The notes below the pieces were generated by a model. That model was not told where the DNA came from, did not search any database, and saw only the letters and a program-made list of their open reading frames with translations. Position numbers and translations under genes: made by a program. From contig CALRBR010000002.1 of assembly GCA_943354385.1 (NCBI GenBank), positions 4,208 through 68,207 on the forward strand: a stretch of 64,000 bases of DNA, written 5' to 3'. This document shows, piece by piece, positions 2,722 through 63,910 of this stretch; positions within the stretch are counted from its first letter, which is position 1; each line of letters opens with the position of its first letter. This stretch comes from Candidatus Tayloriibacteriota bacterium. GTDB taxonomy: Bacteria > Patescibacteriota > Minisyncoccia > Phycocordibacterales > PALSA-1337.

Positions 2722-3747
2722 ATGTCAAGTACCTCCCCTCACAATTCTCCTACTCCAGAAAAAGACGGCTCGGTTGAGGCGTATCTTGACCAGACCCTCC
2801 GGCCCGACAAATGGGCTGAATACATTGGTCAGAAAAATATCAAGGATAATCTCCACATCCTTCTCACTGCAGCCAAGGGACGCAAACACCCTCCAGAACA
2901 CATCCTTTTCTACGGTCCCCCAGGTCTCGGCAAGACAACGCTCGCGCATCTTATCGCAAAAGAGACTGGAGCGCAAATCAAAATCACCTCAGGTCCTGCT
3001 ATAGAAAAAGTCGGGGACCTCGCATCGATCCTCACCAACCTTTCCCACGGAGATATTTTATTTATTGATGAGATCCACCGCCTAAACAAAACCATCGAGG
3101 AGGTGCTTTACCCTGCTATGGAGTCTGGCTCGCTCGATATCATCATCGGCAAGGGCCCATCTGCTCGCACCATCCAGCTCGAGCTCCCTGCCTTTACTTT
3201 GATCGCTGCGACCACTCGTATCGCCATGCTCTCTTCCCCACTACGCTCACGATTTGGTGGTGGAGTATTTCGTCTCGAGTTTTATAGCCAAGACGAGATC
3301 GAGCAAATCATTGCTCGGTCGGCTCAGATTTTAAAAATTAAACTGGAGAAAGATGGGGCGCAACAGATTGCGAAAAGAAGCCGTTTTACTCCTCGTACTG
3401 CCAATTATTTCCTCAAACGTTGCCGAGATTTTGCCGAAGTACATGGCACGGGAGTACTCGATAAAACAAGTGTCGAAAAAGCCCTCTCGCTCCTCGGAGT
3501 AGACAATGTCGGCCTCACTTCATCAGATACAGCACTTCTCAAAACCATGATTGAAAAGTTTGGTGGTGGTCCTGTCGGTCTCAACACTATCGCAGCAGCA
3601 CTTTCCGAAGAGCAGTCTACCGTGGAGGAAGTGCACGAACCATACTTGATTCAGCTCGGCTTTCTCGAACGTACTCCGAGGGGGCGCACTGTCACCACCA
3701 AAGCCTACGAGCATTTGCACATCAAGGGTTCGCCGAAGTTGATTTAA
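2722..3747 (+). CDS. ruvB: Holliday junction branch-migration helicase RuvB
   Basis: 341 aa. Walker [10 protein letters not shown], RuvB-typical AAA+ and C-terminal winged-helix region. Confidence 0.9.
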
Positions 3748-7912: not shown

Positions 7913-8117
7913 CCCATTACTCTATCACAATTCGCAGATTTACGAAATTCGTTGAAGATGTGTCTTTTTAGTAGGGTTCACAGGCGGGTAGCCGGGATTT
8001 CAGAAAAATTCTATCAGGAATTTATTCGTACTACTAAAAAAATATCGAGAAAGAATTTCTTAAATCTTAAGTCCTAATTCTTAAATAAAGCCAAAAATAT
8101 GCTATTATGGTATCACT

Positions 8118-10718
8118 GTGAAAAAAATAAAACACCCCCTACAGCACACCGTGTCCCATCATTATCACAAGGTGGTAGGTTCAATAAAAAACCAAAGGCA
8201 CTTTGTCAAAAAACATCTACCTAAGGTAAAACATGGGGTAGTTTTAGCCATCTCATCTGGTTTTGTACTGCTCGGTCTTTTCGCCATCTGGGTTTCTACC
8301 TTCAAAATTCCTGACTTCAAATCTTTTGATGCTCGAAAAATTGTTGAGTCGACAAAGATCTACGACCGGACAGGTGAAATCCTCCTCTACGACATCAATC
8401 AAGGCACCAAACGTACCATCGTGCCTTTTGAGGACATTTCCCGCAATCTCAAAAACGCCACGGTAGCCATAGAGGACTCTGAATTCTACCAGCACCTCGG
8501 CATTCAACCAAAAGCGATTGCTCGAGCAATACTCGTAAACCTAAGACTCAAAGATGGTATTGTTGGCCAAGGAGGTTCAACTATCACTCAACAGGTAGTT
8601 AAAAACACCATCCTTACTGGAGACAAAACTATCACCCGCAAACTCAAGGAGTGGATTTTGTCTCTCAAACTCGAACGAGTAATGTCTAAGGAGCAAATCT
8701 TGGCCCTTTACCTAAACGAAACCCCTTACGGTGGTAATATTTACGGCGTGGAAGAAGCGAGCCGAGCTTTTTTTGGTAAGAAATCAAACAATGTTACTAT
8801 CGCAGAGGCTGCCTACATAGCCGCCCTTCCACAAGCCCCTTCTTTTTATTCACCCTACGGACAAAATAAGGAACGGCTAGAGGTACGTAAAAATTTTGTT
8901 CTGCGACGAATGCTCGATAACAAATTTATCTTATTAGAGGATTATAAAAAAGCCCTTGAAGAAAAAGTTACTTTTTCACAGAAGGACAACAAAAATATTC
9001 GTGCTCCTCATTTTGTTTTTTTCATAAAGGACTATCTTGATAATAAATATGGCGAGCGCGTTGTTGGAGAAGGGGGTTTTAAAGTTATCACGTCGCTCGA
9101 CTATCCCCTCCAACAGAAAGCTGAGGAGCTGGCAAAGAAACACTCCGACCGCATTCAAGCTGAATTCAAAGGAGACAATGTTGCACTGGTAGCGATCGAC
9201 CCAAAAACCGGCCAGATCCTTTCGATGGTCGGCTCGCGAGACTATTTTGACACAAAAATTGATGGAAACTTTAATGTAGCTACTGCTCACAGACAGCCTG
9301 GCTCTTCCTTCAAGCCGTTCATATACGCGACAGCTTTCAAAAAAGGTTACACTCCCGAGACAGTGGTATTTGATGTGGAAACCGAGTTTTCACTTGAGTG
9401 TGGTGCTGATGGATCCACCACCACCCCAGCGGCCATTTGCTACTCACCAAAAAACTTTGACAATCGTTTCAGGGGGCCTATGACTCTCCGTAGTGCACTC
9501 GGACAGTCCATAAACATTCCCGCCATCAAAACACTTTACCTCGCTGGACTTATAGACTCTCTCCAGACCGCAAGGGACATGGGTATTGAAAGCCTTTCTG
9601 ATTCAAATCGTTATGGCCTTACCTTGGTACTTGGAGGTGGTGAGGTTAGCCCACTTGAGATGGCTGGTGCTTATGGTGTTTTTGCAAATAACGGCATCCG
9701 CAACCCTTCTACTGGAATAATTCGGATCGAGGATGGTCGGGGAAACATTATTGAAAGTTTTGAACCAAAACCCTCAGTGGTTCTCACTGAAAATGTCGCC
9801 TTACAAATATCTGACATTCTCTCTGATGATACAGCTAGGACGCCTGCATTTAGGCCTCGCTCATCTCTATATTTTTCCGGGCGACATGATGTTGCTGTAA
9901 AAACAGGTACTACAAACGACTCTAAGGATGCCTGGATTGTGGGTTATACACCAAATATTGCAGTGAGCATTTGGGCAGGAAACAATAGTGGTTTACCTAT
10001 GGAACAACATGTTGCGAGCACTATAGTTTCTGGGTTTTTTCACGAATTTATTAGTGAGGTGATACGAGGTACTCCAGACCAACCGTTTAAAAAACCACAA
10101 TCCTCCCCCGATGGATTGAAGCCTGTACTTAGAGGGATTTGGCAGGGTGGACAAACCTATATCACCGACAGTGTTTCAGGCAAGCTTGCCACTGACAGTA
10201 CCCCCCAAGAAACACAAGTGGAAAATGTCTTTACACAGATACATGATATTTTATATTGGATAAATAAAAACGATCCAAACGGACCAATTCCTACAAACCC
10301 AAATGATGATCCTCAGTTTGATCATTGGGAGTATGGTGTGCGGGAGTGGGTGAAAAAACACAAAATACCAGAAGAGGCCACCTCATCTATACCAGTTCTC
10401 TACGACAACATACATGTAGTAGAAAATGTGCCGAGGGTGACAATTACCTTTCCTAAATTGGGAAAAATCTATCCAAGTAACTCAAAAATGACGATTGACA
10501 TAGAGACTTCTGGTAAATTCCCTGTTACCAAAGCCGACTTCTTTATAAATGGCGATCGTATCGGTGGAGTTGACCAACCACCACTCAATTTTTCTTTTAT
10601 TCCTGAAGGGATAGATAATATTCAAAGTGAGAATGATTTACAAGTTGTGGTGTACGACAGCGTATTTAATAAAGCTGAGGTGACACAAAAATTACTTCTA
10701 AATACTGCTCGTCAATAG
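8118..10718 (+). CDS. class A penicillin-binding protein (transglycosylase/transpeptidase)
   Basis: 866 aa. N-terminal TM, GT51 motifs (EDSEFYQH, GGSTITQQ), transpeptidase SSFKP, SxN and KTG motifs. Confidence 0.9.
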   Translation: MKKIKHPLQHTVSHHYHKVVGSIKNQRHFVKKHLPKVKHGVVLAISSGFVLLGLFAIWVSTFKIPDFKSFDARKIVESTKIYDRTGEILLYDINQGTKRTIVPFEDISRNLKNATVAIEDSEFYQHLGIQPKAIARAILVNLRLKDGIVGQGGSTITQQVVKNTILTGDKTITRKLKEWILSLKLERVMSKEQILALYLNETPYGGNIYGVEEASRAFFGKKSNNVTIAEAAYIAALPQAPSFYSPYGQNKERLEVRKNFVLRRMLDNKFILLEDYKKALEEKVTFSQKDNKNIRAPHFVFFIKDYLDNKYGERVVGEGGFKVITSLDYPLQQKAEELAKKHSDRIQAEFKGDNVALVAIDPKTGQILSMVGSRDYFDTKIDGNFNVATAHRQPGSSFKPFIYATAFKKGYTPETVVFDVETEFSLECGADGSTTTPAAICYSPKNFDNRFRGPMTLRSALGQSINIPAIKTLYLAGLIDSLQTARDMGIESLSDSNRYGLTLVLGGGEVSPLEMAGAYGVFANNGIRNPSTGIIRIEDGRGNIIESFEPKPSVVLTENVALQISDILSDDTARTPAFRPRSSLYFSGRHDVAVKTGTTNDSKDAWIVGYTPNIAVSIWAGNNSGLPMEQHVASTIVSGFFHEFISEVIRGTPDQPFKKPQSSPDGLKPVLRGIWQGGQTYITDSVSGKLATDSTPQETQVENVFTQIHDILYWINKNDPNGPIPTNPNDDPQFDHWEYGVREWVKKHKIPEEATSSIPVLYDNIHVVENVPRVTITFPKLGKIYPSNSKMTIDIETSGKFPVTKADFFINGDRIGGVDQPPLNFSFIPEGIDNIQSENDLQVVVYDSVFNKAEVTQKLLLNTARQ

Positions 10719-10778: not shown

Positions 10779-10923
10779 AAAGCCATTTTGCCTATTTTTA
10801 CGAAATGGCTCTATAGAGCCAAGCTAAACGGCTAAACGTCACGTTTAGCCGTTTAGCTTGTGTAGCCTGGGCCATAAATTTTCAGTAGAAAATTTATGGG
10901 GTTAAGTTATACCGAGCCTATAA

Positions 10924-11008
10924 GGTTACTTCGCTTTATTGGCCTTGACCGAAGATAATACTTTGGTCTGCTCGATTTATATAGTCGCTTTGCTCCTTAT
11001 AAATCGGC
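10924..11008. repeat. family-2 ~85-bp hairpin repeat
   Basis: ggttacttcgctttattggccttgaccgaag...ctcgatttatatagtcgctttgctccttataaatcgg. Contains ccgaag/cttcgg-type hairpin. Confidence 0.7.
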
Positions 11009-11010
11009 AC

Positions 11011-11268
11011 CTACCTCACATCCTTCACCACCATTCCCACCACCTCCCTCTCGCAACGCTTTAAAATCTGCCCCTTTTTAATATAAACCTGACTTTTTTG
11101 GGATAAAGGAATCTTTAGGCTAATCACACCATTTTTATACTGAATCATTTCAACACCTACCACTACCCCACACTCCTCCGATACGATTTTTGATATCGTC
11201 TCCTTCGCAAAACGCTCCTTTAACCCAACATTTTTAAATTTTTCTAGGAAGGAAGCAATGTTGTACAT
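11011..11268 (-). CDS. small protein downstream of dnaN (DUF721-like, tentative)
   Basis: 85-aa ORF immediately 3' of dnaN in the same orientation. Position is typical of the DUF721 family. Similarity not verified. Confidence 0.3.
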   Translation of the reverse strand: MYNIASFLEKFKNVGLKERFAKETISKIVSEECGVVVGVEMIQYKNGVISLKIPLSQKSQVYIKKGQILKRCEREVVGMVVKDVR

Positions 11269-14113: not shown

Positions 14114-14355
14114 AAGTAAAAAAGATTTGTGTGTGCACTCTAGTATATACCTTCTGGAAAAATACTGAACTTGTGGAAAAGACACTTTTATGTGCATATG
14201 TTGGGGATATGCTGGGGATATCGAGCGATACTGGTCGCGAAGACGCTGAGCTCACCAGAGCATAGTGCAGGTCGATGGGAATCTGAGCGAAGCGAAGATA
14301 CGAACAATAATAAAATTAAAAATTTCGTAATTCATGGCCAGATACAAAACCATAA

Positions 14356-14439
14356 GGTTGCTTCGCTCTACTGGCCTTCACCGAGGGAAATACCTAGGTG
14401 CTCTCGATTTATATAGTCGATCCGCTCCCTATAAATCGG
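14356..14439. repeat. family-2 repeat (divergent copy)
   Basis: ggttgcttcgctctactggccttcaccgaggg...ctctcgatttatatagtcgatccgctccctataaatcgg. Confidence 0.6.
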
Positions 14440-14479
14440 GGGGTTGATTTTTTAGCCAAGATGGCGTATGCTATCCCCT

Positions 14480-14629: not shown

Positions 14630-14971
14630 ATGCTCCCTAGAGAAAGGAGAGTACATAAAGAAGAGTTTGGAGAGGTCTTGAAAAAAGGCCTTTCTTTTCA
14701 TTCTGCGCATATTTCCTTGAGAGGGATTAAGAAGGACGATGTCTCCCCTAGCAAGTTTTCTGTAGTGGTCTCAAAAAAGTTTGCTATGCTGGCAGTGGAT
14801 AGAAATCTGATTCGGAGACGAGCGATTGCTGTCATTGAAGCACATGTAACCGGTATGAAAAAAGGTATTTCAGCTATTTTTTCTTTTAAAACAGGTGCAT
14901 CTAAACTTTCATCCCAAGAGATAAAGACGGAGATAATCACTTTGCTCAAGCAGTCTGGACTAATTTCGTAA
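14630..14971 (+). CDS. rnpA: ribonuclease P protein component
   Basis: 113-aa basic protein in the canonical rpmH-rnpA-yidC arrangement. Confidence 0.75.
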   Translation: MLPRERRVHKEEFGEVLKKGLSFHSAHISLRGIKKDDVSPSKFSVVVSKKFAMLAVDRNLIRRRAIAVIEAHVTGMKKGISAIFSFKTGASKLSSQEIKTEIITLLKQSGLIS

Positions 14972-15105
14972 ATCCCTCGACTAACGTCTGCTGAGTCGAT
15001 CGTTTGTGATCGACACCTGTAGACGGCCTCTATGAAAGGAAGAACGTAACCCGAATTAATTCCTCCTTTTCTAAAGGAGGTGGTGAGTACTCGAGACGGA
15101 GGATT
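14970..15105. repeat. MITE/REP-like modular repeat (family 1), copy between rnpA and yidC
   Basis: Contains core gctgagtcgatcgtttgtgatcgacacctgtagacggcc and arm attcctccttttctaaaggagg...gagacggaggatttt. Confidence 0.7.
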
Positions 15106-15153
15106 TTATTATTTTGATTGATTACTCAGACTTAGTGCGCTAATATTACCCTT

Positions 15154-17338: not shown

Positions 17339-18511
17339 CTATGGATTACTGCTAACTTGTGCGTTTGTTAACGCTCTTTCTCGGTCAAGTCCTTTTTGAT
17401 AGGCTTCGTCAATCTTTTTTATTCTTTCACTGGTGTATGCCCTTATCGCTTCTGCCTCAGCGGGGTATGTTTTTAAGAATTTATTATACACTTCGTTACT
17501 TCGTTTGCTGACATCTCTTTTGACATTCCTGATATTTTCCTCGAGCGCCTTTTGGTTGGTTGTTCCACCAGGAACATAAAATCTGGACGCGGCAGTAAGT
17601 GCTTTTTGAATGTCATACTCTTGATCAAGTTTTGTAAGGTCGATAGCTTTTTGGGTCTTGAGCAGGTCGATATTAGAGGTTATTTCCATTGCACCATCAG
17701 GTTCATCTGATTGTTCAATTTCTGATCGTTCTTTTTCTAACTTAAGAATTGCTTCGTTGTAGTTTCTTTCTGTGTTTCTTTTTCCACCGTCGATAATATT
17801 TTTAATTGTTTCCGCATCCTCTTTAGAGGTATCTTTTGAAAAAAACTGAAACACATCATTCTTTATACTTACACTTTCTGCCTTTGCAAGAACGCTGTCT
17901 CTTGCGACGTTGGTTTTACATTTTAACTTCGCGTTATTTGCGGCAACCTCATCTCCTGAGAGTCTTAAATCTTCTGCTTTTTTATTGCATTCGTCGAGCG
18001 CTGCTCTGACAGCGTCGAGCTTTCGATTATTTTCAAGGTATGGATCTACATACTGAATTCGCTTCGCCAATTCTTCTGTTTTTATAGGCTCCAATCCCCC
18101 GCTAAACTCTAGTAGCTGTGGGTTTATGGTATTTAAAATAAGGAAAGAGCCGAGGGCGAGGCCGAGTCCCCAGAGGGCACCCTCGATTTTTTCCTTTCCC
18201 TCGCTTTTTCCCCTGACAGCATCGGTACTCATATACTGGAATCCTCCCCAAATAATCATAAAGACTGCGAAGACACCCGCGAGACCGATACCAATCTTGA
18301 ACATTTCTTTGAGATATGTAGCGATATTTACGCTAGGCTTTGAAACACCACCCACCACCAGAGGCTCGAGGAGGCAGTATTCGTCTTTTGAAGATACACA
18401 CGGTGTTTTTTTCTCAGTAGCTGTTGAACCTGTTGTTTTGGAAACATCTACTTGTGCCTCTACATCTGTTGGAACAACAAAAAAAGCACTGATATAAAAC
18501 ATCACCATCGT
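17339..18511 (-). CDS. membrane protein with VirB2/TrbC-like double hydrophobic hairpin and long coiled-coil C-terminus
   Basis: Signal-like N-terminus, then two hydrophobic helices (IGIGLAGVFAVFMIIWGG / LWGLGLALGSFLIL) separated by a short charged loop, as in T4SS pilins, followed by ~250 aa of coiled coil. Start moved to M94: the upstream 93 codons of the track ORF are encoded by a MITE copy. Confidence 0.45.
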   Translation of the reverse strand, partial: TMVMFYISAFFVVPTDVEAQVDVSKTTGSTATEKKTPCVSSKDEYCLLEPLVVGGVSKPSVNIATYLKEMFKIGIGLAGVFAVFMIIWGGFQYMSTDAVRGKSEGKEKIEGALWGLGLALGSFLILNTINPQLLEFSGGLEPIKTEELAKRIQYVDPYLENNRKLDAVRAALDECNKKAEDLRLSGDEVAANNAKLKCKTNVARDSVLAKAESVSIKNDVFQFFSKDTSKEDAETIKNIIDGGKRNTERNYNEAILKLEKERSEIEQSDEPDGAMEITSNIDLLKTQKAIDLTKLDQEYDIQKALTAASRFYVPGGTTNQKALEENIRNVKRDVSKRSNEVYNKFLKTYPAEAEAIRAYTSERIKKIDEAYQKGLDRERALTNAQVSSNP

Positions 18512-18567
18512 AGCGAGTAGAGTGGATGCGAATACTTTTTTAAGAAAGAGGGTTTTAAGGTTGATAT

Positions 18568-18713
18568 TAATTCCTCCTTTTTTAAAGAAGGCCGTCCACA
18601 GGTGTCGATCACGAACGATCGACACGGCGAGTACTCGAAACGGAGGATTTTGAGCGATGAAAAAATCCCTCCTTCGCAGTAGCGAAGTGCTCCCTTTAGA
18701 AAAGGGAGAATAA
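18568..18713. repeat. family-1 MITE-like repeat
   Basis: Terminal inverted arms aattcctccttttttaaag ... ctttagaaaagggagaataatt. Internal hairpins gtcgatcacgaacgatcgac and ccttcgcagtagcgaagg (CAGTAG loop). Confidence 0.75.
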
Positions 18714-18796
18714 TTCCCGTACAGTCGACATAGAAAAGGGAGAATGGGGAGCGAGTCAGTAAAAAATTTTTTAAAAATAATGTTTTTCATCTTGTA

Positions 18797-19852
18797 TTAA
18801 AAGGCAACCTCTTTACTCTTGGCATCAAAAGATATTGAAAAGTCGTACCCTGCATTTTGGAGAATGTTCCTACTATTTTCTATTCCCACACTTACCCCCA
18901 CACTTCCAGCTTCGGCCTGACCACTCCTCCTTAGAGTGACACGATTTTTCTTTGCTACTCCACTGATATCAGCACCGTTCATGCTCCAGAGATAGTCAAG
19001 GTGTGTTACGGCCGGTGTTTTGCCTGAAAAATAGTATGGCACTGCCACAAAAGTCGCCTCGTCATTGGATAACGTAAATGTATCCAAAAGAGCTTTATTG
19101 TAAAGCACTCCATAGATAGGGTCATCCTGGTAGACCAAAATAGACGGTCTCTCTGGATCGAGCTCAAGATCGGCACTAGCACGAGTCCCGTCAGCCATAG
19201 ACGAAACCTCGACAGAAATCTCAGTCGCCTTTGGCAAGAGGGTTCCTAAAAAAGAAAAGCTGTCCTTACCATACCCTGAGTCACTTCCCTGCACCACTCC
19301 ATCCATACTCCACTTATATACGAGATTTTTAGCGCTCAATTTTTTGCCATTGACCCCCAGCAAATTTGGAATAGCGACCACGGTGACAAAGCCCTGATTG
19401 ACATAGGGTGACCGGCCTTTGTAAAAAGGCGGGGTGTAGCCACTGGTCTCCCAGACGAGGTCGACTTCTCCGGGACGGATGGGAATGTTTTTGCGAATCG
19501 TTCTACCCGAAACAGTAACGATGACAATATCGATAGATGAAGGGGTACCGAGAGACCCCGTGCGGAACTCAAACCGATTCAAACCAATCGCTTTTTGCAT
19601 TTGTTTACCATTTAAAAACCAGGCGATGGTAGCGCGGTCGAGATCGGTAGAATAATTTTTAACAGTAACACTGACGAGTGTATTTGGACCAGGGCGACTC
19701 GGTGACACTTCTATTTCCAAAGCATCGGGGATAGCGGTCATGAGCTGGGCGTGCAAAGGTGTAAGAGGAGTGCAAAACAAAACCCCAGCGAGTAAGGCAA
19801 ATCCAAAGATACAAAATTTTTGAGAAACGAAAGAATAGGAGTTTGACCGCAC
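18797..19852 (-). CDS. secreted hypothetical protein
   Basis: Signal peptide FVSQKFCIFGFALLAGVLFCTPLTPLHAQ. Start set at GTG 19852: no ATG precedes the signal peptide, and the upstream part of the track ORF is MITE-derived. Confidence 0.4.
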   Translation of the reverse strand: MRSNSYSFVSQKFCIFGFALLAGVLFCTPLTPLHAQLMTAIPDALEIEVSPSRPGPNTLVSVTVKNYSTDLDRATIAWFLNGKQMQKAIGLNRFEFRTGSLGTPSSIDIVIVTVSGRTIRKNIPIRPGEVDLVWETSGYTPPFYKGRSPYVNQGFVTVVAIPNLLGVNGKKLSAKNLVYKWSMDGVVQGSDSGYGKDSFSFLGTLLPKATEISVEVSSMADGTRASADLELDPERPSILVYQDDPIYGVLYNKALLDTFTLSNDEATFVAVPYYFSGKTPAVTHLDYLWSMNGADISGVAKKNRVTLRRSGQAEAGSVGVSVGIENSRNILQNAGYDFSISFDAKSKEVAF

Positions 19853-19853
19853 C

Positions 19854-19998
19854 AATTCCTCCTTTTTTAAAGTAGGCCGTCCACAAGTGTCGATCACAAA
19901 AGATCGACACGGCGAGTACTCCAGACGCAGGATTTTGAACGTTGAGAAAATCCCTCCTTCACAGTAGTGAAGTGCTCCCTTTAAAAAAGGGAGAATAA
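19854..19998. repeat. family-1 MITE-like repeat
   Basis: Same architecture. Hairpin ccttcacagtagtgaagg. Confidence 0.75.
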
Positions 19999-20042
19999 GA
20001 AAAATTCTTTGAGAAAGTTTCCATTTCATTGCATATATTTTA

Positions 20043-20578: not shown

Positions 20579-20724
20579 GTTATTCTCCCTTTGTAAAGGC
20601 CGTCTACAGGTGTCGATCTCGAACGATCGACTCAGCAGACCAGCAGGCTGAGGATTTAGGAGATTCGGGTTTCAAATCCCTCCTTCACAGTAGTGAAGTG
20701 CTCCCTTTAAAAAAGGGAGAATAA
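20579..20724. repeat. family-1 MITE-like repeat
   Basis: Same architecture. Precedes the virB4-like ATPase gene. Confidence 0.75.
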
Positions 20725-20728
20725 CCCA

Positions 20729-22537
20729 CTACTGGTTCGCCAGCTCGTCTTTTGCTCGCTTTATAGCGAGGACCTGCTCGGGGTTGGTGGTGATGATCTG
20801 GTCCTCGGTGTATGAAGCGATCACCTTGATAGCCACATGTTTGAGGCCGACAAAGAAGATCCCCTCTCCAATATCCGACTCGAGCAGGAGATACTTCTCC
20901 TCGTCGGTAAGGTTGAAGGTTTTTTGAAGTATATCCATCGAAGACGGCGACTGCTTGAGCAATATCTGAATAGAAGAGTTGGTAATAATCGGCAATCCGT
21001 AAGGAGATTTTAGAAAGTCGTCCACGTCTTGAGTAATAGTCGCAAGGCCGAGATAGTATTTTCGTCCTCGTTTTGCGAGCCCAAGCAAGAACGATGCGGT
21101 GTCATCGGATTTCATCATCCACCATGCCTCGTCGATGACGAGTAGACGCTTTTTGAGATTCTTGCGGATAGCGTTCCAAATATAGTGGGTGACAATGTAC
21201 ATGGCTACCGGCTTGAGCTCGTCTTCCATGTCGCGGAGAGAAAAGACCACGAATTTTTTATTGATATCTACATTTGAAGGTCGATTGATAAAGCCCGACC
21301 AAGTACCTTTTGTATATTTACTGAGCTTTTGTACCAGCGACTCCCCTCCTTCCATGCCCGCAAGCACGAGCTCAAAGTCAGAGAGAAGTGGTGGCTCAAC
21401 ACTTTTAAAATCAGACTCGGCGGTGATATCTTTGAGTGCGTATGTCTCGGTAATAGCTCGGTCGATGATCGCGTCCTCCTCCTGAGTCAGTCCCCCCATC
21501 ATGATACGGAAAAGGCCCACGAGATTGACAATGTTTGAGCGGAGTACATCCGAGGCCGACTCGTCTTCTCGAGGTATTGGAAGGTCAAAGGGATTTATAT
21601 GGTGTTCTGAAGTAAGTGAAATATTGAAATATCTACCACCCACTGCTTCAGACATGTACTCGTATTCTTTTTCTGGGTCGATGACGATAACTTCAGTTTC
21701 AAACATTAGTGTTCGGAGTATTTCCAGCTTTACGGCGTAGGACTTACCAGAACCGGCTTTGGCAAAGGTTACTGAGTTGTAGTTTTCTAGCAGGAAGCGG
21801 TCAAAAAGAACGAGGCTGGAGTTGTGACGGTTGATACCATATAGAATACCTTTGTCAGAGGTGAGGTCAAATGAGACGAATGGAAAAAGACTTGAAAGTG
21901 GTGAGGAGTTGAGCTTTGAGTGCACATTGAGCTCATCGGTAGCAATAGGTAAAATACTTTTGTACCCTTGCTCCTGCTGGAAAAGGGCGGGCTTGAGGTA
22001 GACGAGCTTTGATTCCAGTACTGATTTTATCTCGGACTCTGTTTTGTCGAGCTCCCCTGCACTATCTCCATATATAGTAATGTATACACCGACGTCAAAA
22101 AGTTTCTCCTGGGCCTGCTGGAGATTGTCGCGAAGCTGTTCGAGATCACGATAAGCGGTGTCGAGCATCGGATCGCGCACGAGACCTTTTTCTTCTCGTA
22201 CATTGATCTGGCTTTGTACCTCGGCTACCTTTTTCTGAAATGTTCGGAGAGCTTTGGCGGTATCTACCGGGTGAATGAAAATAGAAATATTAAAAACTTT
22301 GTCGAGGTTTATGATTGGTGCAAACCAGCTATCGGAAAGAAAGCGAGGGTATGAGATCACGAAAAAAGTGCGGGCAATTTTCTCTCCTAGATTGAGTTCT
22401 TTTGGACTGACTTTCAGCGCAGATGGAGCAATAATGTCTTTTAGCTCGAGTATGCCAGCCTCATATATTTGCTGTGGCAAAATAGATGCGATGGGCACCT
22501 CTTTTTTACTTCCAAATAAATTAGAAAATATTCCCAT
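20729..22537 (-). CDS. VirB4/TrbE/CagE-family type IV secretion ATPase (C-terminal ATPase region)
   Basis: 602 aa. Walker A FAKAGSGKSYAV, Walker B LLVIDEAWWMM, conserved VirB4 motifs (VIDPEKEY, ATQ). Lacks the usual N-terminal ~200 aa. Confidence 0.8.
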   Translation of the reverse strand: MGIFSNLFGSKKEVPIASILPQQIYEAGILELKDIIAPSALKVSPKELNLGEKIARTFFVISYPRFLSDSWFAPIINLDKVFNISIFIHPVDTAKALRTFQKKVAEVQSQINVREEKGLVRDPMLDTAYRDLEQLRDNLQQAQEKLFDVGVYITIYGDSAGELDKTESEIKSVLESKLVYLKPALFQQEQGYKSILPIATDELNVHSKLNSSPLSSLFPFVSFDLTSDKGILYGINRHNSSLVLFDRFLLENYNSVTFAKAGSGKSYAVKLEILRTLMFETEVIVIDPEKEYEYMSEAVGGRYFNISLTSEHHINPFDLPIPREDESASDVLRSNIVNLVGLFRIMMGGLTQEEDAIIDRAITETYALKDITAESDFKSVEPPLLSDFELVLAGMEGGESLVQKLSKYTKGTWSGFINRPSNVDINKKFVVFSLRDMEDELKPVAMYIVTHYIWNAIRKNLKKRLLVIDEAWWMMKSDDTASFLLGLAKRGRKYYLGLATITQDVDDFLKSPYGLPIITNSSIQILLKQSPSSMDILQKTFNLTDEEKYLLLESDIGEGIFFVGLKHVAIKVIASYTEDQIITTNPEQVLAIKRAKDELANQ

Positions 22538-22628
22538 GGGATAATTATAGCTTAAATGTTGACGAGCACGAAATTCTTTCTTGGAGTATATTGTGGTTTT
22601 TCATGAGAGTTGTTGTCATTTTTTTGTA

Positions 22629-22743
22629 TTATTCCTCCTTTTCTAAAGGAGGTGGCTCGTACTCGAGACGGAGGATTTGTGTCTTCTGGTAAAATCCCTC
22701 CTTTCCAGTAGTGAAGGGATCCCTTTAGGAAAGGGAGAATAAT
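22629..22743. repeat. family-1 MITE-like repeat (short form) between the two virB4-like ORFs
   Basis: attattcctccttttctaaaggagg...cctttccagtagtgaagggatccctttaggaaagggagaataat. Confidence 0.75.
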
Positions 22744-22750
22744 ACAGTGC

Positions 22751-23398
22751 CTACGTCAACTGTATTGGCTTTTCCATATCTCCTGGATTGAAAATGCGGT
22801 AGTAGAGCTCGATAATTTCTTCGGTACCGAGCTGTACCACGCGAACACCAGATCTGACGAGTCCCTGCTCTACCACACTCATTCTTTGCTCTAGCTGACT
22901 GCGGTGTTCCTCAAAATCCTCTATTTTCTGCTTACCAGCATCTTCGGATACAGAAGGTTTTTTTCCTAGAAGCTTGCCCATGAAGTTATCTTTTGTTTGC
23001 AGGAGCGGTGGTGAGTATGGGATAACAACAAAAAAGCTTTTGGTCATGATGCTCGAGTTGTCGGTAAAGTTTTTGATAAATTCGATATATTCTCGCGTCT
23101 GAATTTTCATCAAGTCCCCCATTTGTTCCTTGTATCTGTTTTCGAGGAGTGCAATATAGGGTCTGATGTCTAGGCGTTTTGATTGTACAAATATTTGTAT
23201 AGAAAAATCTAGGGAGTTTAATAAATTTTGAAACTGATAGATGATGGAGTTTTGCTCGTCGGTCGATTTGAGAGCGAAGTTTAGAGATGAAGCCATGAGT
23301 ATTCCACGCATACCACCGTCTTTGAGAATGACCACGCCATTTTTGACCTCTTTGATCGGAACAAAATCTTGAGTTGTTTTTGAGCTTGCAGTCGCCAT
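22751..23398 (-). CDS. hypothetical protein, candidate detached N-terminal domain of VirB4
   Basis: 215-aa ORF immediately upstream of the VirB4 ATPase, separated from it by a MITE copy. Combined length (817 aa) matches full-length VirB4. Confidence 0.4.
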   Translation of the reverse strand: MATASSKTTQDFVPIKEVKNGVVILKDGGMRGILMASSLNFALKSTDEQNSIIYQFQNLLNSLDFSIQIFVQSKRLDIRPYIALLENRYKEQMGDLMKIQTREYIEFIKNFTDNSSIMTKSFFVVIPYSPPLLQTKDNFMGKLLGKKPSVSEDAGKQKIEDFEEHRSQLEQRMSVVEQGLVRSGVRVVQLGTEEIIELYYRIFNPGDMEKPIQLT

Positions 23399-23445: not shown

Positions 23446-23591
23446 CATTCCTCCTTTTTTAAAAGGAGGCCGTCTACAGGTGTCAATCATAAACGATTGA
23501 CTCTGCTGGTACTCCAGACGGAGGATTTTTAACTCTAACAAAATCCCTCCCTCACAGTAGTGAAGGACTCCCTTTAGAAAAGGGAGAATTA
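23446..23591. repeat. family-1 MITE-like repeat
   Basis: Full-length copy with CAGTAG hairpin cctcacagtagtgaagg. Confidence 0.75.
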
Positions 23592-23620: not shown

Positions 23621-24061
23621 CTACCTCTGTCTCTTATCCGAATATACACTGTTGTTTATATCCAAACTCCAAGTAAGATCCTTGAGCTTACTGTCGGAAA
23701 GCTTTGGTACAGAAAGCATTGGAATGTCCTCCGTCGATTCGTCGGGGACACCACTTACTACTGGCCGATCATGTTTTTTCCAAATATATAATTTTTCATT
23801 TACCACATATTTGAACGCAGATTCTACCAGAGCAGAAAAAGGCATCGGGCTCGGATTGTAGGGTTTATAAAAGGCTAGAGCTCCTGCAAAAGCGAGGATA
23901 GGTAGGATCAGGATAAGACTAATATAGATAGGCACAGGCAGAAACTGGTACACCATAAAAGACATTCCTAGTCCCCCACCCATATATACAAACTGTTTAA
24001 AGGTCAGCTGGCCAAATATCTTGTCTTCTATTTCTATAAATTGTGGGACTTGGAAGCGCAT
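23621..24061 (-). CDS. VirB3/PrgI-like small membrane protein
   Basis: 146 aa. N-terminal QF.EIEDKIFG..T..QF motif followed by two TM helices. Positioned directly upstream of virB4-like genes, as VirB3 usually is. Confidence 0.4.
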   Translation of the reverse strand: MRFQVPQFIEIEDKIFGQLTFKQFVYMGGGLGMSFMVYQFLPVPIYISLILILPILAFAGALAFYKPYNPSPMPFSALVESAFKYVVNEKLYIWKKHDRPVVSGVPDESTEDIPMLSVPKLSDSKLKDLTWSLDINNSVYSDKRQR

Positions 24062-24105: not shown

Positions 24106-24160
24106 TTATTCCTCCTTTCCTAAAGGAGCTGGCTCGTAATCGAGACGGAGGATTTAATCT
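24106..24160. repeat. family-1 repeat, left half, flanking DUF559 gene
   Basis: ttattcctcctttcctaaaggagctggctcgtaatcgagacggaggattt. Overlaps the last codons of the DUF559 ORF. Confidence 0.6.
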
Positions 24161-24482
24161 CTCGCACGACACTCTCTATATTATACCTCACATCCGCATC
24201 ACTAAACCTAAGGAATCGGATACCTTTTAATTCTAACATATTCTGTCGAATAATGTCCGCTTCGACTTTACTATCATGACTCACCCCATCTATCTCTATA
24301 GCTAGGTTTAAAGTGTGGCAGTAAAAATCAACGATATATTTATTAACAGGTCTTTGTCGTAAAAATTGATATCCAAGTTTTTTCTTTTTTAACTCTTTCC
24401 ATAATAATACTTCTGCAAGATTGCCTGATTTGCGTAGGTTTTTTGCAAGAGGCTTGAGATTTTTATGATAGATGAGCTTCAT
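24120..24482 (-). CDS. DUF559 (Vsr/PD-(D/E)xK-like) endonuclease-domain protein
   Basis: 120 aa. Characteristic ...YIVDFY...LAIEIDG..H.... pattern. Last ~12 codons are encoded by a MITE arm. Gene is nested between two halves of a MITE copy. Confidence 0.7.
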   Translation of the reverse strand: MKLIYHKNLKPLAKNLRKSGNLAEVLLWKELKKKKLGYQFLRQRPVNKYIVDFYCHTLNLAIEIDGVSHDSKVEADIIRQNMLELKGIRFLRFSDADVRYNIESVVREIKSSVSITSQLL

Positions 24483-24497
24483 TTTTTAATGAAATCT

Positions 24498-24636
24498 AAA
24501 TCCTCCGCCTTTCAGGCACCTCCTTTAGAAAAGGAGGAATAATTCGGAATCCATACCCATTCTCCCTTTCCTAAAGGCCGTCGACAGGTGTCGATCACGA
24601 ACGATCGACTCAGCAGGCTCCAAGCCGAGGGATTTG
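24498..24636. repeat. family-1 repeat, right half plus additional core module, flanking DUF559 gene
   Basis: aaatcctccgcctttcaggcacctcctttagaaaaggaggaataattc followed by ccattctccctttcctaaaggccgtcgacaggtgtcgatcacgaacgatcgac... Confidence 0.6.
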
Positions 24637-30340: not shown

Positions 30341-30443
30341 CCATTCTCCCTTGGTAAAGGGAGTACCCGTAGGGGGAGGGATTTTATAAAATTCAAATCC
30401 CTCGGCCTCTCGGCCACTCCCTTTAGGAAAGGGAGAATAATTC
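30341..30443. repeat. family-1 MITE-like repeat (variant)
   Basis: ccattctcccttggtaaagggag ... ccctttaggaaagggagaataattc. Confidence 0.65.
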
Positions 30444-30500: not shown

Positions 30501-31448
30501 TTATTTCAATGCGTGTGCAAGAGTTTTCCACTGTTTTAGATCTAGGTCCTCGGCGCGAGTGTCGATGGCTATACTGAGGGCAGAAAAAGTGTTTTCGAGG
30601 GTAGTTTTTTCGGCAATTGTCTCGAGATTTCTGATTAATTTCTTTCTTTTGTGAGCAAAACCAGCTTTGATGAGTTTGAAAAAGAATTCTTGTGAGTCCA
30701 TTCCTCCTTTTTTAAAGGAGGTGCTCAGTACTCTGGGCGGAGGATTTAAAATCCCTCCCCCTACTGGTACTGAGTCGATCGTTTTTGATTGACACCCGTC
30801 GACGGCCTTTATGAAAGGGAGAATGGGGAGAGATGCTGTCTGTCCCGTTGTGTTACTTTCTATAAAAAACTGATCTGAAATGTTGTCGATAAGCAAAATA
30901 GCTGAGTCAACAGACGGCACAGGATTAAAAGAACCAGCACTGACTGTCTGTATGTATTTTGGAGAGCCGTAGGCTTTTACTGAAAGCGACAAAATACTCT
31001 CTTTTGCATCCTTTGCCACAATTCTTCTCGCCACTTCTTTTTGGAGCATAAGAGTCATGAGAGATGGCTGTGTGTCTGTCTCGAGAAACTTTTGAATGAG
31101 CTCGCCAGTGATGTAGTAAGGTATATTGGCGACGAGTTTGTATTTGCCAGCCAAAATACCTAGGTCTTTTGGGGACATGTCGAGAATATCGCCGTGAATG
31201 AGCTTTAGTTTACCAGAAGTCACTTCCCCTCCAAAACGTTCCGAAAGATGAGGGATCATGCGGTCATCTTTTTCCACTGCGATCACTTGAGCGCCAGTTT
31301 TGAGTAGAAATTCTGTCAGAACCCCTTTTCCAGGACCAATCTCCAGGACAATATCATCTTTTGTCACTCGCGATGCTTCCACCATAGCGTGCACTGCACC
31401 CATAGAATGGAGGAAATTTTGACCGAGAGACTTTTTGGCGGGGATCAT
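30501..31448 (-). CDS. ksgA: 16S rRNA (adenine1518/1519-N6)-dimethyltransferase RsmA/KsgA, carrying a ~43-codon in-frame repeat insertion
   Basis: N-terminal GQNFL, SAM-binding LEIGPGKG, C-terminal FFKLIKAGFAHKRKKLIRNL matching KsgA. Residues ~201-250 are encoded by MITE copy 30698-30827. Confidence 0.85.
   Translation of the reverse strand: MIPAKKSLGQNFLHSMGAVHAMVEASRVTKDDIVLEIGPGKGVLTEFLLKTGAQVIAVEKDDRMIPHLSERFGGEVTSGKLKLIHGDILDMSPKDLGILAGKYKLVANIPYYITGELIQKFLETDTQPSLMTLMLQKEVARRIVAKDAKESILSLSVKAYGSPKYIQTVSAGSFNPVPSVDSAILLIDNISDQFFIESNTTGQTASLPILPFIKAVDGCQSKTIDSVPVGGGILNPPPRVLSTSFKKGGMDSQEFFFKLIKAGFAHKRKKLIRNLETIAEKTTLENTFSALSIAIDTRAEDLDLKQWKTLAHALK
30698..30827. repeat. family-1 MITE-like repeat inserted in frame within ksgA
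   Basis: ccattcctccttttttaaaggagg...gtcgatcgtttttgattgacacccgtcgacggcctttatgaaagggagaatgg. Lies entirely inside the ksgA ORF without a stop. Confidence 0.75.
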
Positions 31449-33742: not shown

Positions 33743-33888
33743 CACGCCAAATTTTATATTTCTTTCTCGGCATATCTTTTGAAAGAGCACGCATACTTTT
33801 TTGGTAAAAAGTTGCTCTGCTCGGCTACCCGCCTGCGTAAGGCTTTTCAAAAGATGCGCCTTCAACGAAATATAAAATTTGGCGTGCT
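33741..33888. repeat. family-3 ~110-bp repeat with 22-bp terminal inverted repeats
   Basis: Core tcttttgaaagagcacgcatacttttttggtaaaaagttgctctgctcggctacccgcctgcgtaaggcttttcaaaagatgcgccttcaacgaa, flanked by agcacgccaaattttatatttc / gaaatataaaatttggcgtgct. Confidence 0.65.
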
Positions 33889-35517: not shown

Positions 35518-35656
35518 CATTATTCTCCCTTTGCAAAGGGAGCACCGACAGTACTCTGGCGCGGAGGGATTTGAAACTTAAATCCCTCGGCCTGGAGCCT
35601 GATGAGTCGATCGTTTGTGATCGACACCTGTAGACGGCCTTTACAAAGGGAGAATA
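35518..35656. repeat. family-1 MITE-like repeat
   Basis: cattattctccctttgcaaagggagc...gtcgatcgtttgtgatcgacacctgtagacggcctttacaaagggagaataga. Confidence 0.75.
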
Positions 35657-35766
35657 GATCACCATCTCAGCTACTCGCTTCCGAAGCCCTTTTAAAAGAT
35701 ATACCTTCAACACATTTCGTATAATTCGAACTAATTTTTTATTTCTCACTATGCTATACTGTCGAA

Positions 35767-42789: not shown

Positions 42790-42920
42790 TCTCCGCAAAA
42801 CTCTTAATCGGCAAATCTTTTGAAAGAGCACACATACTTTTTTGGTAAAAAGTTGCTCTGCTCGGCTACCCGCCTGCGCAAGGCTTTTCAAAAGATTTGC
42901 CTTCAACGAGTTTTGCGGCG
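42790..42920. repeat. family-3 repeat, second full copy
   Basis: ~95% identical core to 33765-33880. Flanked by ccgcaaaactc / gagttttgcgg inverted repeats. Degenerate relatives at 12-78, 2326-2396 and 7996-8062. Confidence 0.65.
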
Positions 42921-43012
42921 AGAAGTAGCTAGTCAAAGTATACCGTATTTTAGGAAGAAATTAAAGAAAGAATCCCCCGCGACGCAGTCGCGGGGGATTC
43001 TTTCTTTTTGAT

Positions 43013-44143: not shown

Positions 44144-44232
44144 CCCGATTTATAAGGAGCAAAGCGACTATATAAATCGAGCGGACCGAAGTAGTCTCTT
44201 CGGTCAAGGCCGATAAAGCGAAGCAACCTTAT
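44144..44232. repeat. family-2 repeat (inverted orientation)
   Basis: ccgatttataaggagcaaagcgactatataaatcgagcggaccgaagtagtctcttcggtcaaggccgataaagcgaagcaacc. Confidence 0.7.
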
Positions 44233-44307
44233 TGTATTCAGTCCTAGAGCCATATTATCGGATTTTATTATCTTTCTATCTTCCAATCAAGTACTATCTG
44301 TGGGGGG

Positions 44308-58577: not shown

Positions 58578-58598
58578 GTAGGGTAGGCATCTTAGTCC

Positions 58599-58727
58599 AT
58601 TCCTCCTTTTCTAAAGGAGGTGGCTGGTACTCCAGACGGAGGATTTTAAATCCCTCGGCTTGAAGCCTGCTGAGTCGATCGTTTGTGATCGACACCTGTA
58701 GACGGCCTTTAGAAAAGGGAGAATGAA
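58599..58727. repeat. family-1 MITE-like repeat
   Basis: ccattcctccttttctaaaggagg...gtcgatcgtttgtgatcgacacctgtagacggcctttagaaaagggagaatg. Confidence 0.75.
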
Positions 58728-59907: not shown

Positions 59908-59996
59908 GCCGATTTGTAGGAAGCGGAGCGACGATACAAATCGAGCGGACCGAAGTACCCCCTTCGGTCAAGGCCGATAAAGCGAAGCAACCTTAT
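59908..59996. repeat. family-2 repeat (inverted)
   Basis: ...gcggagcgacgatacaaatcgagcggaccgaagtacccccttcggtcaaggccgataaagcgaagcaacc. Confidence 0.7.
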
Positions 59997-60007
59997 TGAA
60001 TTTGAAA

Positions 60008-60083
60008 ATCCATCGGCACGGAGCCTTCTGAGTCGATCGTTTGTTGATCGACACCTGTAGACGGCCTTTACAAAGGGAGAATG
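60008..60083. repeat. family-1 repeat fragment (core plus right arm)
   Basis: ctgagtcgatcgtttgttgatcgacacctgtagacggcctttacaaagggagaatg. Adjacent to a family-2 copy. Confidence 0.6.
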
Positions 60084-60175
60084 TATCCCACGAAATTGCT
60101 TCCGCAATTTTGTGGGTCTTTCCTCTTTTCCTTGTTAGTACAAACCCCCAACATGCGATAAAATAGAGATACAAA

Positions 60176-63855: not shown

Positions 63856-63910
63856 TGGTATAAAAAATACTCCCCGCGACGCAGTCGCGGGGAGTATTTT
63901 TTAAGATTTT

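Follow-up and report, generated by a model that had tools for sequence, protein, structure and literature searches.

A DUF559 nuclease gene between inverted structured repeats recurs as a cassette in Patescibacteria and other bacteria

In a 64,000-nt stretch of a Candidatus Tayloriibacteriota genome (contig CALRBR010000002.1, positions 4,208 to 68,207; G+C content 43.8%), hereafter the window, a gene for a small nuclease of the DUF559 family lies between two inverted copies of one structured repeat unit, the arms. Gene and arms together form one conserved cassette with terminal inverted repeats, which recurs at unrelated loci and in many phyla. The window also contains nine arm pairs that have no gene between them, one tail-to-tail pair, and two solo arms (Table 1). 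The gene-less pairs are cassette arms abutted without the gene, probably miniature derivatives or, equivalently, the empty form of the cassette. An earlier sequence-only reading of the region had placed the open reading frame (ORF) between two repeat modules that adjoin each other in intact copies; the inverted arms at 24108-24155 and 24498-24540, and the spacers of only 1-16 nt in the nine gene-less pairs, agree with that description. Its module boundaries were nearly right (refined here from 24106-24160 and 24498-24545), and both modules are present; they are not two different halves of a repeat, however, but inverted copies of one unit.

DUF559 is among the commonest uncharacterised nuclease domains of bacteria and abounds in uncultured lineages with small genomes; we know of no role assigned to it. 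Escherichia coli has been known since the 1990s to contain BoxC, PIT, and TMECO repeats, conserved and widespread elements of unexplained origin whose block layout the arms resemble. The physical and evolutionary link described here gives DUF559 and these repeats each a candidate explanation. We found no report linking DUF559 to such repeats in open-access papers or on bioRxiv.

The two arms flanking the window gene differ by one mismatch over their outer 21 nt and pair without any mismatch over their inner 9 nt. On the window strand, the downstream arm reads ATTCCTCC...GGAGGATTT and the upstream arm AAATCCTCC...GGAGGAAT. Read on the gene strand, the latter consists of a pyrimidine block, a purine block, a small hairpin, and a mirror purine block, in that order, and folds as single-stranded DNA (ssDNA) with z=-2.9. 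The downstream arm encodes residues 109-120 of the protein (KSSVSITSQLL) and the TAG stop codon, as had been proposed for the last ~12 codons; the stop lies inside the loop of this arm's outer hairpin, and alignments with homologues end near residue 113. Gene-less arms at 22633 and 15061 have variable hairpins nearly identical to that of the downstream arm (24110). An additional core module that had been described at 24556-24636 proved to be part of a third arm, whose tail-to-tail arrangement with the upstream arm is also found in the ortholog locus L010.

For the analysis of other genomes, DUF559 relatives were sampled from 80 species-representative genomes (GTDB loci) and from contigs encoding close homologues; L-numbers (L002, L009, etc.) label these comparison loci, which are 2-12 kb stretches of other genomes. 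Inward-facing inner arm ends on both sides were detected by a strict motif test in 17 of 25 Patescibacteria DUF559 genes and in 1 of 917 control ORFs from the same loci (Fisher p=2e-29). The single control match is a spurious antisense ORF inside rnpA, and several of the eight DUF559 genes that did not score also have arms when inspected by eye. We also used a motif-free test, the best local alignment of the upstream flank with the reverse complement of the downstream flank, against 892 control genes. By this measure 60% of 81 DUF559 genes (80 loci, many phyla) exceed the 99th percentile of the controls and 75% exceed the 95th. The check proposed in the sequence-only reading, whether other DUF559 genes lie near arms, thus returned the same inward-facing arms at unrelated sites in about 20 other Patescibacteria genomes, and the link between gene and repeat is supported both by the motif counts and by its recurrence in other phyla. 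Either of the two origins offered in that reading may apply, a gene that went into a repeat or a repeat that has a nuclease of its own and is parental to the gene-less copies. Gene-less arms are also denser in contigs with DUF559 (0.074/kb) than in those Patescibacteria contigs without it that were compared (289 kb in total; 0.007/kb; ratio 10.6, p=1e-4).

The canonical layout recurs in Taylor-, Nomura-, Harrison-, Jackson-, Buchanan-, and Portnoybacteria, among others (proteins 57-75% identical). Here the upstream arm (ATTCTCCCTTTnnnAAAGGGAG-hairpin-GGAGGGATTT) ends 0-2 nt ahead of the ATG, compared with 15 nt in the window, and its GGAGG then falls at Shine-Dalgarno distance, while the downstream arm (AAATCCTCCG-hairpin-CACCTCCTTTAnnAAAGGAGGAATAA) encodes the protein tail and stop codon. 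This encoding explains the odd C-terminal tails of DUF559 proteins in databases (...ILPFLKGA..., ...APPLGKEE, ...APFKKGE). The gene is situated at the palindromic centre in L021, L022, L024, and others, where GGGATTT directly precedes the ATG and AAATCC directly follows the gene. Analogous arms with other sequences occur on both sides of DUF559 genes of Bacteroidota, Chloroflexota, Ignavibacteriota, Nitrospirota, and two cultured Pontibacter species (for example, AATTCCCCTCCtcgGGAGGGGttaGGGGTGGGT ... gene ... ACCCACCCCtaaCCCCTCCgagGGAGGGGAATT). Arm sequence varies by clade, and the layout of hairpin and mirror G-block is kept. Viral contigs yielded ten distant DUF559 homologues, three of them with analogous arms; since these are few and distant, the clade is not mainly viral.

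The window cassette is located in a row of type IV secretion system (T4SS) genes, where VirB4/TraG-like (20729-22537), TraC-like (22751-23398), and PrgI (23621-24061) genes are followed by the DUF559 gene and then by genes for a 283-aa and a 698-aa protein. The identical protein in other records has a T4SS context every time, and no second DUF559 copy is present in the window. In a sister species (L009-L011), an 89%-identical ortholog occupies the same place. Two other lineages (L012/L017 and L016) have, between rpiB and rpe, a homologue that is 75% identical and is flanked by both arms. The presence of the cassette at such unrelated sites indicates that gene and arms move together and are then inherited vertically. 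Neither DUF559 nor arms were found upstream of prgI in any of 78 other PrgI loci (48-77% identity). A clean empty counterpart of the window locus was not found, and the upstream regions of these 78 loci are too diverged for insertion boundaries.

The identity of the ORF as a Vsr/PD-(D/E)xK-like nuclease, assigned earlier from the letters, was borne out by its match to Pfam PF04480 (DUF559; E=8e-28; a score of 96.9 bits where the cut-off is 20.6; positions 2-107 of the 109-position profile) and by an AlphaFold model (pLDDT 75.5) with a Vsr-like restriction-endonuclease fold. Foldseek matched the model to PDB entries 3HRL (8e-7, TM 0.86 on the target), a Neisseria DUF559 protein also matched by sequence (E=9e-12), 3R3P (catalytic domain of I-Bth0305I; 5.5e-5), and 1VSR/1CW0 (Vsr; ~0.1), with further matches to PvuRts1I/AbaSI and R2 endonuclease domains. 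Residues D52, E63, D65, H69, and D70 are invariant in 14 homologues (64-83% identity). They match the EDxHD signature from which the I-Bth0305I family takes its name; their putative catalytic role follows that family name (PMC3239194) rather than a residue superposition. Judged from its sequence, the protein is functional and under strong purifying selection: the ratio of nonsynonymous to synonymous divergence (dN/dS) is 0.076 between the window and L010 (dS 0.91) and 0.058 between L012 and L016 (dS 1.8), both being ortholog pairs at conserved loci. PADLOC and PHROGs returned nothing beyond weak, generic nuclease-domain matches and assigned no defence system.

Arm pairs without the gene

Of the two arm types, the G-type (TCCC/GGGAG/GAGGGATT) stands upstream of the gene in canonical cassettes and the A-type (CCTCC/GGAGG/GGAGGATT) downstream of it. 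Six of the nine gene-less pairs of the window combine the two types with cassette polarity, and all six share one orientation (p ~0.03). Variable hairpins are common to gene-less arms and gene-flanking arms within one genome, as at 3198-3242 and 4667-4711 of L023. Gene-less arms of several genomes abut without any spacer (GAGGGATTT directly followed by AAATCCTC), which places the DUF559 gene of the cassette at the exact centre of a palindrome. As single strands, the gene-less pairs fold far beyond shuffled sequences (z = -3.5 to -7.25; ViennaRNA, which models no triplexes). The spacers at 18651 ('tgagcgATGAAA') and 20658 ('aggagattcgggtttc') might hold remnants of a DUF559 leader or start, and these strings are too short to serve as evidence.

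Gene-less pairs are mobile, or were so until recently: they insert, are copied, and are exchanged. Insertion is recorded in the 16S rRNA dimethyltransferase gene ksgA, whose product is 315 aa long in the window, compared with 262 aa in its four closest orthologs (79-88% identity, syntenic), which do not have the insertion. The pair at 30697-30826 accounts for 42 of the 53 extra residues, and once these 42 codons are removed, the Pfam RrnaAD alignment runs without a break. Translation of the repeat yields the extra peptide, ILPFIKAVDGCQSKTIDSVPVGGGILNPPPRVLSTSFKKGGM, which lies in a linker of the enzyme. Rickettsia palindromic elements are likewise tolerated in frame within conserved genes, and no gene is known to be associated with them; they resemble the ksgA insertion in this respect and differ in that the sequences are unrelated. 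Copying is indicated by the 145-nt pairs at 18569 and 19854, which are 91% identical including the spacer, so gene-less pairs must be copied as units. The second of them is within the 5' part of called ORF 18797-20029(-), as the first is within that of another called ORF (Table 1). These pairs are either further in-frame insertions or the true start codons are located downstream of the repeats.

Exchange is evident at orthologous sites. L005, which is 98.8% identical to the window in the flanking genes, has a different pair at the site of 20582-20724 downstream of virB4. The type of the DUF559 upstream arm is swapped between the window and L010. The pair at 30343 is G/G in the window and A/G in the ortholog L192, so an arm must have been replaced. 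The 35-nt core module behaves as an indel within the arm, and the L009 ortholog of the pair at 23447-23591 does not contain it. Further, L009 has nothing that corresponds to the pair at 22628-22742 or to ~95 nt next to it, its TraC-like and VirB4 genes being 4 nt apart.

An Rfam scan of the window found four tRNAs only; the arms are therefore not a described RNA family. Simple terminators were considered as an explanation of the arms and rejected, as promoter and terminator scans over 22.4-25.6 kb showed no enrichment over shuffles. The outer hairpin of A-type arms (e.g., 22633-22654 and 24519-24540) pairs CACCTCCTTT, which is identical to the usual 3' anti-Shine-Dalgarno tail of 16S rRNA, with AAAGGAGG, the consensus Shine-Dalgarno sequence. 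If transcribed, this hairpin might affect the translation of neighbouring genes.

Triplex-type layout and enterobacterial DUF559 genes

In each arm, a pyrimidine block and, 3-4 nt further on, the purine block that is its Watson-Crick partner are followed by a variable hairpin and then by a third, purine-rich block, a mirror image of the second in which T replaces some A (AAAGGGAG...GAGGGATTT, AAAGGAGG...GGAGGATTT). All eight of eight positions are allowed purine-motif triads (G·G.C, A·A.T, T·A.T) in 93% of 70 arms, compared with 1.3% after shuffling of the third block. The type of the outer block varies together with that of the inner block (46/2/0/33, p=1e-20), and by eye the mirror rule is kept with other sequences in five arm families of other phyla. 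By these features, the window arms share the block layout of the intrastrand-triplex motifs BoxC, PIT, and TMECO, in which one loop separates a pyrimidine block from a purine block and a second loop separates the latter from a mirror purine block (Holder et al. 2015, PMC4666352). The likeness extends to the triads (G with G, A with A, T with A), to intergenic location, to occurrence singly or as tandem inverted pairs, and to local sequence instability. There are 23 TMECO copies in E. coli K-12, five sites being tandem inverted pairs; TMECO form triplexes and stall polymerase in vitro and mark unstable regions (PMC4666352).

The window arms also differ from these repeats. Their blocks are CTCCCTTT/AAAGGGAG/GAGGGATT and CCTCCTTT/AAAGGAGG/GGAGGATT, compared with CCCTCNCCC/GGGNGAGGG/GGGNGAGGG in TMECO. 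Loop 1 is 3-4 nt long and loop 2 is a hairpin or core of 12-60 nt, whereas the second loop of TMECO is 3 nt. The arms are thus outside both the TMECO consensus (CCCTCNCCC-N3-6-GGGNGAGGG-N3-GGGNGAGGG) and the loop rule of 1-6 nt for intrastrand-triplex motifs (ITxF), and because of their long second loop they would have been missed by the published search, which allowed loops of 1-6 nt (PMC4666352). A DUF559 gene is nested in the arm pair here, whereas near TMECO no mobility gene was reported, the authors finding 'never ... remnants of transposases or integrases' (Holder et al., PMC4666352).

Independent support comes from enterobacteria, where the two DUF559 genes examined adjoin such motifs. 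The DUF559 gene of E. coli K-12, ycjD, ends with ...CACCCTCTCCCTGAaagagcGAGGGGG, which puts its stop codon in a BoxC hairpin of degenerate sequence; TMECO no. 9 is found at a distance of 168 nt on the downstream side (chance ~0.002). In this region (NC_000913.3 1351040-1351407; L176), ycjD gives way to a partial duplicate of its last ~60 nt, then to BoxC fragments, and then to TMECO no. 9. The DUF559 gene at the yggW-yggN locus of the Enterobacter asburiae group ends inside a complete inverted TMECO, ACCCTCACCCcggCCCTCTCCCtgaaaGGGAGAGGG, with a forward TMECO 10 nt beyond it. The motifs at this 3' end and the one downstream of ycjD conform to the TMECO consensus. The window protein scores 63.5 against the NCBIfam equivalog model PRK09767, below the cut-off of 218, and so is not an equivalog of YcjD.

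The distribution of ycjD offers further comparisons. It is an accessory gene: of 5426 complete E. coli genomes, 3378 have it and 38% (2048) do not. No clean empty site was found in ycjD-negative E. coli, which have an efflux gene block between sapF and fabI (e.g., O157:H7). Genomes with ycjD have 3.2 extra TMECO megablast places per genome and those without it 1.7, in a crude sample confounded by phylogeny. Of the best 120 YcjD homologues listed, the ones with a named source are from Escherichia, Shigella, Enterobacter, Kluyvera, Klebsiella, and other enterobacteria, with no Salmonella among them. Holder et al. likewise report no TMECO in Salmonella (PMC4666352), a parallel to its absence from these 120 that is suggestive only.

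Models for the proposed partnership of nuclease and repeats

We consider it probable that the DUF559 gene and its arms are a nuclease cassette whose gene-less pairs are miniature, non-autonomous derivatives, and that the whole operates as a RAYT/REPIN-like system with a different enzyme; the action of the nuclease is the part that we infer. The protein, probably a homodimer like I-Bth0305I, would recognise the arms, most likely at the palindromic inner junction GGAGG(G)ATTT/AAATCC(C)TCC that the gene interrupts; alternatively, it could act on single-stranded DNA that has folded into a hairpin or triplex. It would then nick or cut at the recognised arms or junction, and host recombination or repair would copy, convert, or relocate arms and, rarely, the gene. 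At the population level, one maintained enzyme gene would coexist with many cognate doublets, the enzyme being a hydrolytic nuclease and not a HUH transposase.

REPIN/RAYT systems (Bertels & Rainey 2011, PMC3116915, PMC3337134) likewise comprise a low-copy, vertically kept enzyme gene between inverted short structured repeats, along with many dispersed intergenic gene-less doublets that match the associated gene, and produce no target-site duplication. Consistent with this, the nuclease has one or a few copies where visible, compared with many gene-less pairs. The enzyme of the window is, however, a Vsr-like PD-(D/E)xK (DUF559/EDxHD) hydrolytic nuclease and not an IS200-type HUH Y1 transposase. 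The DUF559 arms adjoin the ORF, for which they provide the ribosome-binding site, C-terminal tail, and stop codon, and they are mirror repeats of the triplex type, whereas REP elements are simple hairpins tagged with GTAG or CGTC. Since DUF559 is not an HUH tyrosine transposase, the cassette is not a member of the REPIN/RAYT group and only works alike. The label MITE (for a small transposable element with inverted repeats), used in the sequence-only reading, applies only loosely. The pairs are short, multicopy, non-coding elements with terminal inverted repeats, and a longer gene-bearing version has the same ends. They differ from MITEs in that there is no target-site duplication, DUF559 belongs to no known transposase family, and the ends are complete structured motifs that are also found solo.

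Several observations weigh against this preferred reading. Neither a target-site duplication nor a common target was seen at the nine pairs or in the comparison of filled and empty ksgA. Gene-arm junctions vary, with 0-17 nt ahead of the ATG and differing 3' fusion points, so the arms have also been rearranged independently of the gene. In both enterobacterial genes examined, a recognisable triplex motif is present on the 3' side only. The Patescibacteria arm types are related by descent, and not all of our counts represent independent events; copy numbers cover 64 kb of the window genome and 2-12 kb of others. Binding and cleavage of the arms by DUF559 are steps that we infer from sequence, and since a hydrolytic nuclease of 115 aa cannot itself perform strand transfer, a host pathway would be needed to reach new sites.

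The cassette could instead be a pure homing endonuclease gene, DUF559 cutting the palindromic centre of pre-existing pairs and being copied into them through arm homology, with no role in spreading the pairs. This would account for the exact position of the gene at the palindromic centre in L021, L022, L024, and others and for the 0-nt-spacer pairs of several genomes, and the arms provide 45-80 nt of homology per side. The homing endonuclease I-Bth0305I, closest of the characterised structural relatives, works as a homodimer and cuts a 14-bp pseudopalindrome next to the site where its own gene is inserted (PMC3239194). Its family shares with the window protein the Vsr-like catalytic fold with conserved E, D, H, and D, a gene beside or inside a pseudopalindrome that is a plausible target, and hairpins upstream of the ORF (PMC3239194; Dassa et al. 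2009, PMC2677866). The window protein, however, is a bare 110-aa catalytic domain without the N-terminal DNA-binding region, is under long-term purifying selection, and is not encoded in an intron, intein, or phage gene, and its putative target is a dispersed non-coding repeat instead of a conserved host gene. One DUF559 gene accompanies nine or more empty pairs in the window, and intact 0-spacer pairs lie ~0.5-1.8 kb from a conserved DUF559 gene in L018, L023, and L028. The gene is retained at orthologous sites (dS 0.9-1.8, dN/dS 0.06-0.08), unlike in an invade-and-decay cycle; its junctions with the arms are not uniform; and the arrival of pairs at new sites such as ksgA is left unexplained. 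Because empty pairs, even those with 0-nt spacers, persist beside a conserved gene, we favour the REPIN/RAYT-like model and regard a purely homing cassette as unlikely. Both may be partly true, in that cleavage of pairs and their repair may lead to gene conversion, occasional gene capture, and local instability.

The strong purifying selection and vertical retention would also suit a host function, with DUF559 acting as a Vsr-like repair or structure-processing nuclease, the arms as cis-regulatory elements, and the gene-less pairs spreading by other means. Such a nuclease might remove replication-blocking hairpins or triplexes of the repeats, consistent with the polymerase stalling by TMECO in vitro and their marking of unstable regions, or repair T:G mismatches, as the Caulobacter DUF559 protein VsrA has been proposed to do in very-short-patch (VSP) repair. 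The arms would serve in autoregulation, translation, or mRNA stability, for which the GGAGG of the canonical upstream arm at Shine-Dalgarno distance and the pairing of a Shine-Dalgarno-like AAGGAGG with CCTCCTT in the outer hairpin could be cited. Regulation alone leaves unexplained why both flanks are inverted dispersed repeats, why the cassette occurs at unrelated loci, and why arm sequences track DUF559 clade across phyla; terminator and promoter signals, moreover, are not enriched at the arms. No cytosine methyltransferase was noticed beside the gene, although none was specifically looked for. We accordingly give a host function little credence, slightly below that of pure homing. Coincidence, by which two partial arm copies would have landed independently in neighbouring spacers of a repeat-rich operon, has in its favour that, within the T4SS operon, nearly all intergenic spacers from 18.5 to 24.7 kb hold arms and that a third arm adjoins the right one. 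This explanation, which the sequence-only reading had named as its possible undoing, is refuted by 17 of 25 DUF559 genes against effectively none of 917 ORFs and by the same inward-facing architecture at other loci and in other phyla; its probability is negligible.

If the REPIN/RAYT-like reading is true, DUF559 and its arms would be a second repeat-enzyme partnership of this type with a different catalytic fold, suggesting a protein that reads non-B DNA, and would account for part of the dense intergenic repeat load of the window genome and for the intragenic copy in ksgA. We further propose, tentatively and with somewhat less than even confidence, that DUF559/EDxHD nucleases including YcjD are the trans-acting partner of BoxC/PIT/TMECO-type repeats across Bacteria, recognise a motif of non-B DNA in them, and drive their copying, conversion, and occasional in-frame insertion.

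Feature coordinates and other repeats

Table 1 Coordinates of the DUF559 gene, arms, arm pairs, and a second repeat family in the window
Feature	Position	Strand	Remarks
DUF559 nuclease ORF	24120-24482	minus	120 aa; Vsr-like, EDxHD-type PD-(D/E)xK
Downstream arm, A-type	24108-24155	minus	gene strand AAATCCTCC-GTCTCGATTACGAGCCAG-CTCCTTTAGGAAAGGAGGAAT; gives C-terminal tail and TAG stop
Upstream arm, A-type	24498-24540	minus	gene strand ATTCCTCCTTTTCTAAAGGAGG-TGCCTGAAAGGC-GGAGGATTT
Leader	24483-24497	minus	15 nt from upstream arm inner end to ATG
Third arm, G-type	24559-24635	plus	with inserted core hairpin GTCGATCACGAACGATCGAC; tail-to-tail with upstream arm
Gene-less pair	18569-18713	no strand	145-nt family D1; within 5' part of called ORF 17339-18790(-)
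Gene-less pair	19854-19998	no strand	91% identity over 145 nt, spacer included, to 18569 copy
Gene-less pair	20582-20724	no strand	downstream of virB4
Gene-less pair	22628-22742	no strand	A-type and G-type, 13-nt spacer; ssDNA fold z=-3.5
Gene-less pair	23447-23591	no strand	A-type arm holds core module
Gene-less pair	30343-30440	no strand	G/G; ssDNA fold z=-7.25
Gene-less pair	30697-30826	no strand	in-frame insertion in ksgA/rsmA (30501-31448, minus)
Gene-less pair	35522-35657	no strand	G-type and G-type with core
Gene-less pair	58596-58726	no strand	A-type and G-type with core; 1-nt spacer; ssDNA fold z=-5.8
Tail-to-tail arms (two)	14967-15116	no strand	first starts at rnpA stop codon
Solo arm, A-type	54038-54087	minus
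Solo arm with core module	60006-60084	plus
~92-nt family	10921-11012, 14353-14444, 48772-48863		one orientation
~92-nt family	44145-44238, 53927-54020, 59909-60002		other orientation

Several other repeats are present in the window. A second, unrelated family of ~92 nt has six copies with 74-98% identity, conserved hairpins (GATTTATA...TATAAATC and GACCGAAG...CTTCGGTC), and no Rfam match. Among four tRNA genes, a YraN/UPF0102-type nuclease gene, seemingly frameshifted (ORFs 51472-51696 and 51639-51944), is enclosed by a 107-nt inverted repeat (51072-51178 and 51964-52070; complementary at 78%) and is another small PD-(D/E)xK-type gene between inverted repeats. The motif GAGAAATTTTTCACCAGAAAAATATTCGTGCT occurs upstream of genes at 13-73, 2321-2381, 8013-8035, and 8986-9008, along with a 99-nt repeat at 2265-2363 and 7945-8043, and similar sequence precedes prgI in L096 and also lies alongside the pair at 22545-22630; motif and repeat may be a shared promoter or operator module. 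Many loci of other Patescibacteria (L099, L101-L104, L107, and L108) have ahead of prgI a small gene ending in ...MKMLNKLI and, after it, short tandem repeats (e.g., CCTACAACCTAACACCTA). A GC-rich palindrome between A and T runs (AAGAAAGAATCCCCCGCGACGCAGTCGCGGGGGATTCTTTCTTT), which has the look of a bidirectional terminator, is present at 42964-43007, 47935-47978, and 63861-63904. Finally, a 108-nt direct repeat with 94% identity occurs 9 kb apart at 33761-33868 and 42802-42909, and both copies are also present in strain L002.

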